Source of the DNA: an uncultured archaeon
Lineage (GTDB): Archaea; Asgardarchaeota; Lokiarchaeia; Sigyniarchaeales; SOKP01
Assembly: GCA_964632315.1 (NCBI GenBank)
Contig: CAZWEM010000004.1
Span: 32,001 to 96,000, forward strand
Direction of reading: 5' to 3'
Length of the DNA stretch: 64,000 nucleotides
Every line of letters begins with the position of its first letter. Position 1 is the first letter of the stretch. The notes under the pieces are model-generated. The model worked only from the letters and a program-made list of their open reading frames with translations. It searched no databases and was not told the DNA's origin. Shown here piece after piece: positions 26,800-38,521 of the stretch. The position numbers were made by a program, and so were the translations under genes.

Positions 26800-29700
26800 T
26801 TATTTTTTTGGTGTAAATTCTAAGGATTTCCCACAACTAGGGCAAAATTTCGTATTAAGTCGTATTGAATGACCACAATATGGGCAATAGAGAATATTTT
26901 TTTGAGCCCCTTCATCAGAAGATTCATGATCACTAGAAATTGAATGAGAAGAATCATAGTTTTGCCATGCTTGCTCTTGAAAAGCAGCGCGTTTCTTTCT
27001 TCTATGTCTAACGGAATATATTATAACGGAAATTACTATTAATGCTATGACACTGATGATTATAATTAAAAGTAGGGGATCAAACTGAGTTCCTTGTTGT
27101 ATAGAAAGGATTATTACGAAATCATCAGTTCCTCCATCACTATCAAATATAGTTAATACAAAAATGGATAAATATCCCTCTCCTGTGTTAAAGTCGTAAG
27201 TAGAAGCAGTAGAAATAGACTTTATTCCTGTTATCGACGAATATTGCATGTTATAAGGAATTGAGAATGATCCGATATGTGTATTTGCCGCAAGATTGTA
27301 ACCTAATTCAACTGTAGGGAAAGTGCTTGGATAGATAAGCATAATGTAATTATCAGGGGTAATTGAAACAGCAAACAAGTTGACCGAAATTCGCATTTTT
27401 TGAGAATTGGAATCTTCGTATGAAACTGAATCAAGAGCAGTAATGTTAAAATCAAATCTATCGTCTTGAGTGGTTGTGATCACATAAGTGCTATTGACAT
27501 CATGAGTTTCATCTAAAGTGTATTGTTGACCATTAACGGTAAAGGTTGATTTAGCCTCATCAAATTTTGGTGGATGATTGATAATTTGAGATAATACTCT
27601 TTCTGAGTTTGGATTAGTATAATTGCTATTTGGATCACTTGGAAGAATATACGCTAATAAATATCCTGAGGGGTCATTTGAAGTTGGAATGAATGTGCTT
27701 GAATAGTGAGCTCCGAAATTGCTCATTGAGAGAGTTTTATTGATGGTTTGTTTAGTATTATAATACGAATAGGTATAAATTGCCATGTATGTTGATGAGT
27801 CGTAATTCGACGCATCTAGCTCCGCATCAATGATGATGGGGTCAGAACCTGATCTTGTTGCAGAACTAGTTATATTCAACGAATTAATCTGTGGTACAGC
27901 AGAAGAATTATAATATAATACTTTTGAACTCTTGGAGTAAGTTGTACCTCCAATAGTTATACTCACATTGATATCATAAGGCATATAGGAGTAAGAGCTC
28001 GTTGGTAATGAAAAGGTTTCGTTATAAGCGATCCCATTATAAAGTGAAGCCATCAATATTTCTTCATTATAGCCCAAATGATTAATGGATACGTTTAATC
28101 GTGATTGAAGGATACTTGAGGAAATACGTGAATTAGTTATTTGATCAAAAGCATAAACAGAGATATTCACATTGGAATCAGTAGTTCGCTCCGATTCTAT
28201 GTCAAGGTTTAATGAAACATCGTCTTTTTTCAAGAAATAGTCCATAAGGTTCGAAACCAATCTCGAATGGTCATTAATAAAATCTTGATCATCATATAAT
28301 GCATTTAACCAATTTAGATCTCCAAACGCTACAAAGCGTCCCTTATCCGTACTCCTTCCATCAAAGGCAGAAGCTACGCATTTTCCATCTATGGTTGCAA
28401 TAGCTTGTACATCACCTGATCGTGAAAAGGTATTACCATACGCCCAGCCAAATCCATTAACACCACCAAAGATCTCTGGGGAATTGAAATTAGATACGTT
28501 TATGATCTGATATGATGCACCCACTCCTAACCAATTTTCATTTATGATGGTTTCCTGATTCACTTGAAGATCCAAACCAAGTTGAGAGAAGAGTGAATTG
28601 ATATTCTGGATACATAAATCATTATGTCTAGTTCCCAAGAACAATATGTTTCCTCCACTATCAAAATAGCTTTTAAGATTTTTCATTTCTAATTGATTAT
28701 AAGGTAAAATTGGATTTTGTAGAATGACGAGATCATATTGAAAAAGACGTTCCTCAGTGAGAATAGAATTATCAGAATCTGCATTGTAATTAGGGGTCCA
28801 ATATTCAGCTAAATAATCAATAGATATGTTCAAATCGGTTATAGCCTTCATTGAATCATAAAATCCCACCTGATAAAAGGAGATGTCTGGGAACCAATCA
28901 TTTAAACCATGATAAGAATCCATTAATATTTTATATTCTGGAAACCTTACATCAATAGAAACTTCAACAGAATCATATAACACGCTTCCACTGGTAATAT
29001 TAAGAGTAAAGGTTCTTTTACCAGGTGAAGCATTTTTTTCAATAATTACGTCAACAGAAACAAAAGAAACATCATCATTAGAAAATATCACTTCTGATTT
29101 ATCCAAAGAAATCTTTACGCCATCTAATTTGTTAGGTACTCCAATATCTATCGTTTGGGCTTTCCCTGAAAGGAGAGTTAAATTGAATGCTTGGTGATCA
29201 CCTGGAAAATTTAATAGATCGAATGGTTTGACTGGTAAGGTATTAGGAGAAATTGAAGCAATTTCATTGACATCCCCATAGGTTGCATTAACCGTCATGA
29301 GAAAATTGAGAGATGCAGTTACATTTAAAATTCCTGCTCCATCTTTTAAGTATTCGTAAGATCCATTAACTTGCTTGTTAGCTCCTTTAATCAGCGCAAT
29401 TCTTCCCGTTTCTGGTGTCATTGTTGGAAAAGCATCCAGTAAGACAGCTAAAGCTCCTGAAACAAATGGGCAAGCCATACTGGTTCCACTTAGAGGAATA
29501 TAATCGAAATTACTGGGATAATCAAAATAATCACCAATGAATCTTTTTTCATCAGATAAGACCGAGTTGGGAGCTTCAGTAGAAATAATATTTACACCGG
29601 GTGCTATTATATCAGGATATCCAAGATAACTTAGAGATGGCCCCCAACTACTGAAAGGTGCTAATTTGTTATTTTGATCAAAAGCTCCAACTGATATCAC

Positions 29701-30792
29701 ATCAACACCAGATGCTGGACTTCCTCCTGTAAAATAATCCGGCCCAGAATTTCCAGCTGAAGCAACTAATAATACACCATAATTTTTAGCCGCATTGCTT
29801 ATTGTTAAAGTCATTGGGTCTTCTGCATCGGGAGTGCCCCCTCCAAAACTCATTGAGATTATATCTGCTTCTGCTCCTCCGCTCGCTACAGGTGTAACGG
29901 CCCAATCAATGGCACTTATTATGTCTCCTTCCGCTAAGCCAGAATAGTTACCTGCCCTTGCATTTATTAGGGAAACTCCAGGAGCAACTCCGTGATATTT
30001 CCCTGAAGAAGCTTCACCATCTCCGGCAATTATACCTGCGACATGAGTACCATGACCATAATCATCGTTAACTTTATTAGAAGCTTCTCCAGAGACAAAA
30101 CTTCTACTTAAAACCACGTTGTAATCTGAATGGTTATAAATTCCCGTATCCACAACGGCAACTCTTACTCCAGATCCATCATAGTTCAGATTATTTGCGC
30201 TAATCGCTGGTATCCACCAGTTCGGATAATTATTTGGATTTAAAGAACTCGAACTAGGTAGTTCATTATTAATATAAGGGGCTTCATATATGGTAGAAAT
30301 ATATATCTTTTTGACTCCTTGGACCTCATTTTTAGTCTGGTACATCTCAACTAAATCAGATAAAGAAATCGATAAAAATAAACCAGGAATGATGTTATAG
30401 TTGTTAAGAAGCGTATAATCACTTAGAAACGAATTTATTATTGCGATTCTTTCTGATTTTTCAATATAATCGTCAAATAAGACTATCACCTTTATTTTCT
30501 GTGAATAATGGTTTTCAATATAGGTATTATTTGATAAAATCTGACTTAATTTATTATCAAACAATCCATTTTGACTTTTAAATTCAACATTCACACGATT
30601 TGTATCATTTTCTGTCATTATGGATGATAACCCTGTTAATAAGCTTGAATCAAATATTAAATCATCATCTGATTTTGCATTGCTTCCAGTTGTTCCAAAA
30701 TTTATAGCAATAGGGATAGATAGGAAGCAAGCAACGATGTATATGAGAAATACAGTTTTTTTATCAAATTTAAAGATTTTCATAGGTATCAC
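26800..30792 (-). CDS. Membrane-anchored S8 subtilase (propeptide, catalytic domain, Ig-like and GIFT/GATase-like domains, TM helix, C-terminal double zinc ribbon); site-1-protease-like architecture
   Basis: Triad VVDTG / GHGTHVAG / SGTSMACP with oxyanion SAGNSG; KILMDSYH...YDLVIL...GGNILFLG...GRFVAFGD domain; TM LLLIIIISVIALIVISVIIY then RHRRKKR; CPYCG...CPSCG. Confidence 0.9.
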   Translation of the reverse strand: MIPMKIFKFDKKTVFLIYIVACFLSIPIAINFGTTGSNAKSDDDLIFDSSLLTGLSSIMTENDTNRVNVEFKSQNGLFDNKLSQILSNNTYIENHYSQKIKVIVLFDDYIEKSERIAIINSFLSDYTLLNNYNIIPGLFLSISLSDLVEMYQTKNEVQGVKKIYISTIYEAPYINNELPSSSSLNPNNYPNWWIPAISANNLNYDGSGVRVAVVDTGIYNHSDYNVVLSRSFVSGEASNKVNDDYGHGTHVAGIIAGDGEASSGKYHGVAPGVSLINARAGNYSGLAEGDIISAIDWAVTPVASGGAEADIISMSFGGGTPDAEDPMTLTISNAAKNYGVLLVASAGNSGPDYFTGGSPASGVDVISVGAFDQNNKLAPFSSWGPSLSYLGYPDIIAPGVNIISTEAPNSVLSDEKRFIGDYFDYPSNFDYIPLSGTSMACPFVSGALAVLLDAFPTMTPETGRIALIKGANKQVNGSYEYLKDGAGILNVTASLNFLMTVNATYGDVNEIASISPNTLPVKPFDLLNFPGDHQAFNLTLLSGKAQTIDIGVPNKLDGVKISLDKSEVIFSNDDVSFVSVDVIIEKNASPGKRTFTLNITSGSVLYDSVEVSIDVRFPEYKILMDSYHGLNDWFPDISFYQVGFYDSMKAITDLNISIDYLAEYWTPNYNADSDNSILTEERLFQYDLVILQNPILPYNQLEMKNLKSYFDSGGNILFLGTRHNDLCIQNINSLFSQLGLDLQVNQETIINENWLGVGASYQIINVSNFNSPEIFGGVNGFGWAYGNTFSRSGDVQAIATIDGKCVASAFDGRSTDKGRFVAFGDLNWLNALYDDQDFINDHSRLVSNLMDYFLKKDDVSLNLDIESERTTDSNVNISVYAFDQITNSRISSSILQSRLNVSINHLGYNEEILMASLYNGIAYNETFSLPTSSYSYMPYDINVSITIGGTTYSKSSKVLYYNSSAVPQINSLNITSSATRSGSDPIIIDAELDASNYDSSTYMAIYTYSYYNTKQTINKTLSMSNFGAHYSSTFIPTSNDPSGYLLAYILPSDPNSNYTNPNSERVLSQIINHPPKFDEAKSTFTVNGQQYTLDETHDVNSTYVITTTQDDRFDFNITALDSVSYEDSNSQKMRISVNLFAVSITPDNYIMLIYPSTFPTVELGYNLAANTHIGSFSIPYNMQYSSITGIKSISTASTYDFNTGEGYLSIFVLTIFDSDGGTDDFVIILSIQQGTQFDPLLLIIIISVIALIVISVIIYSVRHRRKKRAAFQEQAWQNYDSSHSISSDHESSDEGAQKNILYCPYCGHSIRLNTKFCPSCGKSLEFTPKK

Positions 30793-37501: not shown

Positions 37502-38521
37502 TTACACTTCAAAGTTCAATTTTTCACCGCAATTAGGACAAAAGTTTAGCTTAAATTCCATATAATTTCCACAAAATGGACAATAGATTCCTTTATCGCT
37601 AATTTGAGGTTCTTTTAAAGATCTATTCATCGGAGAGTATCTTATATGAGGTTCTGCAGTTATTCCATAACTTAATTGATTTTTAACATACGCTGAAGTA
37701 AAAACCGGAGTAAGCAAGCATATAAAAAGGGGTTCTAGTAAGAGAGGGATTAAATTTTGAGCTATTCCATACAAGATAAGAAGATCGAGTCTTCTTGATG
37801 AAGGATTGTACCAACTCGTTAGTGTCAATGAATTTACGGGCCAAGCAAAACTAAAAATAAACTGATATATGAAATTGATTATATATGTGATTAGAGAACT
37901 TATTACTAAAACTCCTATTATCCTCCAAAATGCTCCTTTAGAATATGCACGAGCACTTTTTAATGGATTTTCGTTATCTTTTAACTGATAAGTATATATT
38001 GAGAAAATAAAAAATCCGAAAATGATTATTGATACTATAAAAAGGGTGAATATTCCAAGGGGAATTCCTAAACCAAGTAAAAGCAAGATTGGAATCATTT
38101 TTTTATTAAACGCCCCTTTAATTTCTTCTCGGAGTGAAGTATCTTGATAATTGTAATACTTAAACAAGAAAGCAGCCACAGCACATAATCCTAATACTGT
38201 AAAAATGTTAGAGATTAATAACTCCAAAACAATTAATCCTAATGAAGACATTAAATAATTCATCATTAATTGTAGGGCTTCAGGAGTTATTGATGAGGGA
38301 TCGGAATTTAAAATCGGCGCAATGCGAACCTCTAATACGCTTAAATCCCATCGTAGGTCAACTAGTAAGATCTCCCTTAAAATGATGGAGATTATAAAAA
38401 ATAAACCAATTGGTATGATAATCGATTTGTAGGTCTTCATAAATAACGAAAAACCATCTGATATTAAATTACCATAACTTTTATGTGCAATTCTGTGCAA
38501 TTCTACTGGATCTTTTGACAT
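37502..38521 (-). CDS. Polytopic membrane protein with a C-terminal double zinc ribbon
   Basis: About 6 TM segments, LKSARAYSKGAFWRI, terminal CPFCG...CPNCG. Confidence 0.75.
   Translation of the reverse strand: MSKDPVELHRIAHKSYGNLISDGFSLFMKTYKSIIIPIGLFFIISIILREILLVDLRWDLSVLEVRIAPILNSDPSSITPEALQLMMNYLMSSLGLIVLELLISNIFTVLGLCAVAAFLFKYYNYQDTSLREEIKGAFNKKMIPILLLLGLGIPLGIFTLFIVSIIIFGFFIFSIYTYQLKDNENPLKSARAYSKGAFWRIIGVLVISSLITYIINFIYQFIFSFAWPVNSLTLTSWYNPSSRRLDLLILYGIAQNLIPLLLEPLFICLLTPVFTSAYVKNQLSYGITAEPHIRYSPMNRSLKEPQISDKGIYCPFCGNYMEFKLNFCPNCGEKLNFEV

Follow-up and report, generated by a model that had tools for sequence, protein, structure and literature searches.

A candidate relative of the eukaryotic site-1 protease head in an Asgard family of predicted surface subtilases

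SREBP and ATF6 signalling begins with site-1 protease (S1P, also called SKI-1 or MBTPS1), an enzyme that also processes many proteins of the secretory pathway. It cleaves after R-x-(hydrophobic)-x motifs, acts on membrane-bound transcription factors upstream of S2P and has a prodomain of the MBTP1_N type that is autoprocessed in stages. The ectodomain of the human enzyme, as seen by cryo-electron microscopy, is composed of a prodomain, a Peptidase S8 domain, a 'P-like' beta-sandwich and a GIFT subdomain, residues 617-998, which no other proprotein convertase has (PMC11231238). Reviews class S1P as a pyrolysin-like type-I membrane subtilase (PMC8551645). Here we describe a gene on the minus strand, at 26800-30792, of a 64,000-nucleotide stretch of DNA (hereafter the window) from an uncultured archaeon of the Asgardarchaeota (class Lokiarchaeia, order Sigyniarchaeales; contig CAZWEM010000004.1, positions 32,001 to 96,000). 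With a probability of about 0.7, we read it as encoding an active, type-I membrane-anchored, cell-surface subtilase of a family found in Asgard archaea only, whose head of S8, beta-sandwich and GIFT domains is homologous to the head of S1P as one collinear unit.

In its overall plan the archaeal protein follows S1P (PDB 8UW8, 8UWC, 9CSD): each has a prodomain (presumed in the archaeal protein), an S8 domain with intact D/H/N/S catalytic residues, a beta-sandwich (predicted there), a GIFT domain, one C-terminal transmembrane (TM) helix and a basic cytosolic tail. The two differ in that identity over the head is about 23%, that the archaeal S8 domain stands closer to subtilases of prokaryotes, and that the archaeal protein has an extra stalk of ~380 residues, a longer tail ending in a cytosolic zinc ribbon and no known context of SPRING, SREBP or ATF6. 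For the catalytic domain, the best match is Tk-SP of Thermococcus kodakarensis (PDB 3AFG, 9UES; 171 bits with the single sequence, 334 bits with the family profile, Z 45, 35% identity), which likewise begins with a propeptide and carries a beta-sandwich downstream of S8, but is without GIFT domain, stalk, TM anchor and zinc ribbon. The archaeal protein does not match the class that Tk-SP represents, secreted and soluble enzymes made of S8 and a C-terminal beta-jelly-roll, since these four elements are added here. Outside the family, AprX-type serine proteases of Bacillota come nearest among short S8 proteins (35-42% identity, 142-176 bits); these are about 440 amino acids (aa) long and have neither post-catalytic domains nor a membrane anchor. 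Finally, residues about 619-857 find their best fold matches in IFT52 (PDB 5FMR, 5FMS) and OST48/DDOST (6S7T, 8B6L), with Z 20.6 and 18 over ~200 residues at a root-mean-square deviation (rmsd) of 3.1-3.6, and their best Pfam match in PF23355; neither protein is fused to a protease, IFT52 being cytosolic and OST48 a non-catalytic subunit of oligosaccharyltransferase.

The open reading frame (ORF) is uninterrupted and encodes, in this order, a signal peptide or anchor, a propeptide, the S8 subtilase domain, the beta-sandwich, the GIFT domain, an immunoglobulin (Ig)-like stalk, the TM helix, a basic stop-transfer and the zinc ribbon. The S8 domain occupies residues 195-495 (29308-30210, minus strand, as are all features of the gene; Peptidase_S8, PF00082, at residues 206-474, E 1.7e-50) and contains D215 (30148-30150), H247 (30052-30054), the oxyanion N348 (29749-29751) and S438 (29479-29481), which are invariant across 40 relatives. 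A reading of the protein as a dead, non-catalytic subtilase was rejected, since these residues are intact and no ABC-transporter gene lies beside it. It is followed by the post-protease beta-sandwich (residues about 505-625, 28918-29280), placed by AlphaFold2 (AF2) models where S1P has its 'P-like' subdomain, and by the GIFT domain, of class I glutamine amidotransferase (GATase1)-like alpha/beta fold (residues about 626-860, 28213-28917), which rests on fold matches and on PF23355 (32.9 bits, above the cut-off of 27.2, in a scan of residues 630-880 alone). Weaker Pfam matches to OST48_N, ABC_transp_aux and DUF2194 fall in the same region, which includes the segment GGNILFLG at residues 713-720. 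A preliminary description of this DNA, made from its letters and a list of its ORFs, had likened the protein to MBTPS1 on the strength of a succession of motifs, every one of which is present in the order given: GAGILNV (485-491), ASISPNTLP (512-520), NLTLLSG (537-543), KILMDSYH (621-628), YDLVIL (686-691), GRFVAFGD (818-825) and the basic RHRRKKR (1262-1268). The D/H/S triad that it had called intact is so. Of the S1P motifs that it cited, GHGKLDL, ASLSP, VNVTILNG and GRIVLYGDSN do stand opposite their archaeal counterparts in a HMMER alignment, but the one given as RILWDQYH reads RVLWDQYH in human S1P.

The evidence that carries the relationship is a match through the whole of the head. When a profile of the Asgard head (A5) was aligned by hhalign with a profile of S1P (A6), the two matched with a probability of 100% (E 8e-53) over 586 collinear columns, residues 194-853 on S1P 196-870 at 25% identity, and the alignment crosses both domain junctions unbroken. 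The S1P set comprised 14 metazoan sequences, gathered with a 47-residue S1P stretch as query, which returned metazoan S1Ps only. Furthermore, a profile of beta-sandwich plus GIFT built from 34 diverse relatives (A3) found human MBTPS1 in the PDB (8uw8_A, E 2.7e-11, 46 bits), with profile positions 2-349 lying on S1P 461-855 in one stretch, and a profile of the beta-sandwich alone (A4) was placed by hhalign onto S1P 464-673, the correct place, with a probability of 86.7% (E 4e-6). Narrower queries did not reach as far: against the PDB, the single sequence and a profile of close orthologues only (A1), both of residues 480-1240, returned IFT52 and no S1P, and sheep S1P 481-900, used as a single query, found no match in this genome. 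By sequence profile, then, the family shows homology to S1P over the whole head.

Structure prediction points in the same direction. An AF2 model of the head (residues 150-900, no templates; predicted local distance difference test (pLDDT) 87.8, predicted template-modelling score 0.84), searched with Foldseek, returned S1P at ranks 1 and 2 (9csd_A and 8uw8_A; E 2e-36 and 4.5e-36) with a template-modelling score of 0.59 under both normalisations over about 760 columns, and the next match, Vpr, reached 0.39 when normalised to the query. By VIA-align, S1P superposes with Z 42.9 over 582 residues at rmsd 5.0 A, its residues 190-875 lying on model residues 40-709, whereas Tk-SP, despite its slightly higher Z, aligns over 310-323 residues only. 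Indeed, no PDB chain except S1P spans S8, beta-sandwich and GIFT. Because 582 residues of three domains superpose together, the folds of the Asgard head, their succession and their predicted interdomain packing agree with those of S1P. In a second AF2 model, of residues 480-1240, the GIFT domain matches S1P (Z 17.4) after IFT52 and OST48, and S1P is the sole match that bridges beta-sandwich and GIFT. A Foldseek search with this second model was swamped by multi-Ig chains owing to the stalk, which the head-only model resolved. The alignment of the post-catalytic domains with MBTPS1, in the same order, which the preliminary description had anticipated, therefore holds by profile, fold and domain packing, and the profile and Foldseek comparison that it had proposed for this region recovered S1P with the diverse profile A3, with hhalign and with Foldseek.

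Among the relatives detected, the family is limited to Asgard archaea, in which it is widespread. Full-length relatives number more than 200, with 50-86% identity over residues 480-900, and all labelled ones are Asgard. In a search with profile A2 among 1.84 billion representatives, of which the best 150 matches were inspected, proteins covering beta-sandwich and GIFT were without exception S8 proteins, about 1200-1380 aa long, or fragments of such proteins, and eukaryotic S1P was absent from these 150. The labelled carriers among them are metagenome-assembled genomes (MAGs) with Heimdall, Thor, Loki, Hod and Odin labels, together with the cultured Candidatus Lokiarchaeum ossiferum (WP_371801978.1). 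The same profile found 80 loci among 185,579 species genomes, all 80 of them in Asgard or otherwise unlabelled archaeal MAGs. Of 201 genomes sampled from the phylum, 48 carry a close orthologue (E < 1e-20), most of these 48 belonging to the order of the window, and the beta-sandwich profile matches 173 of the 201 (80 of the 85 of good quality); the matched ORFs range from 660 to 1480 aa, which argues for several paralogue classes. Four relatives from NCBI MAGs labelled Heimdall, Thor, Odin and Hod (P0042, P0095, P0098 and P0106) are 52-56% identical to the Loki-type protein; some of these submitter labels may be unreliable, as orthologues this close are confined, in a GTDB-based sample, to the order of the window. 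A TM helix is present in 159, a basic stretch after it in 158, the zinc ribbon in 143 and the triad motifs in 150 of 164 full-length relatives. A protease domain is absent from all 15 of the other GIFT proteins inspected, and across these and the matches among the representatives no S8-GIFT fusion was seen beyond S1P and the Asgard family.

The trees, in which S1P is represented by metazoan sequences and the S8 outgroups are few, with IFT52, OST48, Tk-SP and pyrolysin left out, bear on descent less sharply. In a tree of 66 GIFT domains, including 33 S8-linked domains of Asgard archaea, 22 GIFT-only proteins and three GIFT proteins of this genome, S1P forms a clade with 31 of the 33 S8-linked domains (ultrafast bootstrap 97, Shimodaira-Hasegawa-like approximate likelihood ratio test (SH-aLRT) 78; SH-aLRT 93 in a quick tree), and this clade stands apart from the GIFT-only proteins and from the genome's own three. 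In a tree of the three domains of the family and S1P, the latter sits on a branch of 3.4 that attaches at a deep internal branch, with no affinity to the Heimdall-labelled sequence. A tree of 57 S8 domains (IQ-TREE, LG+C20 with posterior mean site frequencies) was also computed, in which constraining S1P and the family together costs 3.9 log-likelihood units and is retained by the approximately unbiased (AU) test (p 0.27).

Common origin of the three-domain head in the Asgard family and in S1P is the best explanation of these results, because the profile match is collinear through both junctions, the predicted packing is shared and no other S8-GIFT fusion was seen, and we hold such an origin to be quite probable. 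The main alternative is a convergent fusion, in which a subtilase of Tk-SP or AprX type with a C-terminal beta-sandwich gained a GIFT domain in Asgard archaea, apart from the fusion that made S1P, so that the likeness is architectural only. This alternative keeps weight because every domain, considered singly, is more like relatives other than S1P, and the observations of this kind, which count against common origin, are several. The S8 domain is nearest to Tk-SP and AprX: a hidden Markov model of the family's S8 domain scores 313-440 bits within the family, 247-309 for AprX of Bacillota and 164-173 for S1P, while in the PDB the family profile follows its Tk-SP match with subtilisins at 220-253 bits, and S1P reaches 223 only by counting its GIFT stretch. 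Nor is there a reciprocal-best signal, as the S8 domain of sheep S1P matches another S8 gene of this genome (62.8 bits) as well as it does the present one (58.8 bits). Used with HMMER against the PDB, the beta-sandwich profile A4 did not return S1P, its best matches being beta-sandwiches of GH123 enzymes; and the beta-jelly-roll that follows S8 in Tk-SP aligns partly with the model. The GIFT domain scores higher with IFT52 (69 bits with A3) than with S1P, although the IFT52 match is confined to the GIFT part; GIFT is common in the genome, with three further genes, and ILxDxxH and GxGRxxxxGD are motifs of GIFT domains in general, found in IFT52 alignments too. The Pfam models MBTPS1_3rd (PF23094) and MBTPS1_4th (PF23090) have no match in this genome (PF23090 at E <= 1). 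PF23090 does match 10 of the 34 diverse relatives at E <= 0.01, but as generic GIFT proteins without a protease also match, the model is nonspecific for S1P. The prodomains show no detectable likeness (hhalign of the family's N-terminal regions with S1P, probability 0.3%, E 0.19). Likewise, in the S8 tree S1P lies on a branch of 2.64 along an unresolved backbone that also bears AprX, a GIFT tree that sets S1P outside a group of the family and two GIFT-only proteins scores slightly higher (AU p 0.58), and moving the S1P GIFT domain yet further away survives the AU test (p 0.35), so that these tests do not force S1P beside the family. Against convergence stand the single alignment of 586 columns over both junctions, the joint superposition of the three domains in a model built without templates, which indicates the same interdomain packing, the finding of no S8-GIFT fusion outside S1P and the Asgard family among the proteins inspected, and a maximum-likelihood GIFT tree that unites the two S8-linked groups. 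On balance we consider an independent fusion unlikely.

The direction of any shared history deserves separate consideration. Horizontal transfer of an S1P gene from a eukaryote into Asgard archaea would also produce an architecture unique to S1P and the family, and the trees accommodate transfer either way; however, the family is spread over the phylum with deep paralogous clades, its S8 domains lie on short branches by the prokaryotic AprX and Tk-SP types while S1P is on a branch of 2.6-3.4, the point at which S1P attaches to the family tree lies on a deep internal branch and outside any shallow clade, and the stalk and zinc ribbon are not in S1P. Such a transfer is therefore very improbable. 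That S1P descends vertically from the Asgard family has, in our estimate, an even chance. The preliminary description had gone further and named the protein a candidate ortholog or ancestor of MBTPS1, which overreaches: the S8 scores are nearer to Tk-SP, AprX and subtilisins, the backbone of the S8 tree offers no placement, and the AU tests reject nothing. The S8 phylogeny that it had proposed did not recover a sister grouping with MBTPS1, although the AU test keeps a clade of S1P and the family.

How the enzyme might work can be sketched from its layout and from its relatives. The N-terminal hydrophobic segment would direct Sec-dependent export, and the propeptide would aid folding and then be autoprocessed away, as in other subtilases. 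By analogy with S1P, in which the GIFT domain steadies the oxyanion-hole loop, the archaeal GIFT domain may pack on the loops of the protease. The stalk of beta-sandwiches would keep the head above the membrane, with the TM helix and basic stop-transfer as anchor and the cytosolic zinc ribbon as the end of the protein. We infer autoprocessing, surface proteolysis, glycosylation (there are 22 NxS/T sequons, every one N-terminal to the TM helix) and a three-domain ancestor shared with S1P. The most likely targets of the enzyme are secreted or membrane proteins, which it would cut at the cell surface, the topological equivalent of the Golgi lumen.

A more ambitious proposal is that the archaeal enzyme is a functional equivalent of S1P, making a site-1 cut in a membrane-tethered regulator that an M50 protease (S2P) would then release, so that the cascade predates eukaryotes. 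The S1P-like head and the same topology, with a non-cytosolic active site, are in keeping with it, as is the presence of two M50 genes in the genome. These lie on other contigs (C13 and C51), unlinked to the subtilase, and M50 is found in 14 of 14 control genomes, for which reasons its presence is uninformative. The neighbouring genes encode a thiolase, PurE, RpiA, Rpe and a major facilitator superfamily (MFS) transporter, housekeeping functions that provide no functional context, and no candidate substrate was identified; furthermore, the cofactor and substrates of S1P (SPRING, SREBP and ATF6) are eukaryotic (PMC11231238). We consider this proposal decidedly unlikely. The role in starting regulated intramembrane proteolysis that the preliminary description had assigned to the protein thus finds no support, and the genome search for S2P/M50 that it had suggested, while it did return two genes, gave a nonspecific result.

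The remaining parts of the gene are those that lie outside the three-domain head. Counted from a GTG, the ORF has 1330 codons, with its stop codon at 26800-26802; a database entry, P0002, is 100% identical to the product and 1327 aa long, and because of this twin the ATG at 30783-30781 (M4) is likelier than the GTG and is probably the translation start. Hydropathy marks two hydrophobic segments only. One, at residues about 12-34 (30694-30753 for residues about 14-33), is a putative signal peptide or signal anchor, and the other, at residues 1240-1261 (27010-27075; hydropathy peak 3.6), is the predicted TM helix, directly followed by RHRRKKR (26989-27009), a pattern that predicts type-I topology, with an N-terminal signal segment, one TM helix near the C-terminus and a basic cytosolic tail. 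The propeptide region (residues about 40-190, 30223-30675), in which an alignment with the ProN domain of Tk-SP starts at residue 96 and the match to PF18237 is weak, is presumed from other subtilases to act as an intramolecular chaperone and inhibitor. The stalk (residues 861-1239, 27076-28212) is modelled as Ig/macroglobulin-like beta-sandwich domains, with pLDDT mostly 85-95, has generic multi-Ig matches only in structure searches and far exceeds in length the corresponding stretch of S1P. Two OST48 chains, 6s7t_G and 6ezn_G, align with ~295 residues (protein residues about 619-960, model m99b94990827c), taking in GIFT and the next beta-sandwich at rmsd 13-15 A, and the first stalk domain may, in the model, match the second lumenal domain of OST48.

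The C-terminal tail ends in a single zinc ribbon of four cysteines (C1303, C1306, C1317 and C1320; 26833-26886; PF13240, E 7e-7; Zn_Ribbon_1 at residues 1302-1324), and not in the double ribbon of the preliminary description, which was nevertheless right to call the tail an archaeal addition, given its presence in most full-length relatives and its recurrence on unrelated membrane proteins of the genome. Specifically, the module of a TM helix, a ~40-aa linker and a zinc ribbon of the form CPxCG...FCPxCG recurs on otherwise unrelated membrane proteins of 274-533 aa, at 37511-37597 of the window (minus strand; G000:C4:69511-69597) and at C1:172297-172557, C1:174298-174561, C34:28212-28448 and C27:20176-20535, the C27 protein having two ribbons. 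Asgard surface proteins seem to use the module as a general-purpose cytosolic tail.

Several other genes of the genome contain one part or another of the subtilase. The other S8 gene matched by sheep S1P (G000:C34:40659-41471, minus strand; L006:973-2340) encodes a 456-aa subtilase with a C-terminal TM helix and a KRQRK tail and no GIFT domain. Two GIFT proteins, of 460 aa (G000:C3:47931-48578, minus strand; L094:817-2196; PF23355, 54 bits) and 422 aa (G000:C13:16484-17161, minus strand; L095:964-2229; PF23355, 34 bits), have their GIFT domain at the N-terminus, are without an N-terminal signal-like segment and continue into a charged, perhaps coiled-coil C-terminal region, which is the layout of eukaryotic IFT52. 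The third, of 629 aa (G000:C6:32388-33158, minus strand; L093:853-2739; matches to DUF4350, ABC_transp_aux, IFT52_GIFT and OST48_N), carries a TM helix at its C-terminal end and the tail HKRKKK, an OST48-like topology.

In the literature we found no paper that links Asgard archaea with site-1 protease, MBTPS1 or the GIFT domain in a relevant sense. If the fusion should prove convergent, it would be a notable case of one three-domain solution arising twice. A long shot is the combination of two claims, that S1P has a vertical ancestor in this Asgard protease of the cell surface and that the first cut of membrane-tethered regulators, later released by an M50 site-2 protease, is already made by the archaeal enzyme; were both parts true, eukaryotes would owe the two-step cascade of regulated intramembrane proteolysis in their secretory pathway to the archaeal host. 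The member in the cultured Candidatus Lokiarchaeum ossiferum makes the question open to bench testing, and the family offers a simpler, SPRING-free model for the control of a subtilase by a GIFT domain. As an Asgard-wide family that shares the head of S1P and its mode of anchoring, with the head on the side of the membrane that corresponds topologically, it is a candidate for a new 'eukaryotic signature protein'. Our results suggest that the body plan of S1P is older than eukaryotes and, if the reading given here is true, S1P would gain an archaeal root.

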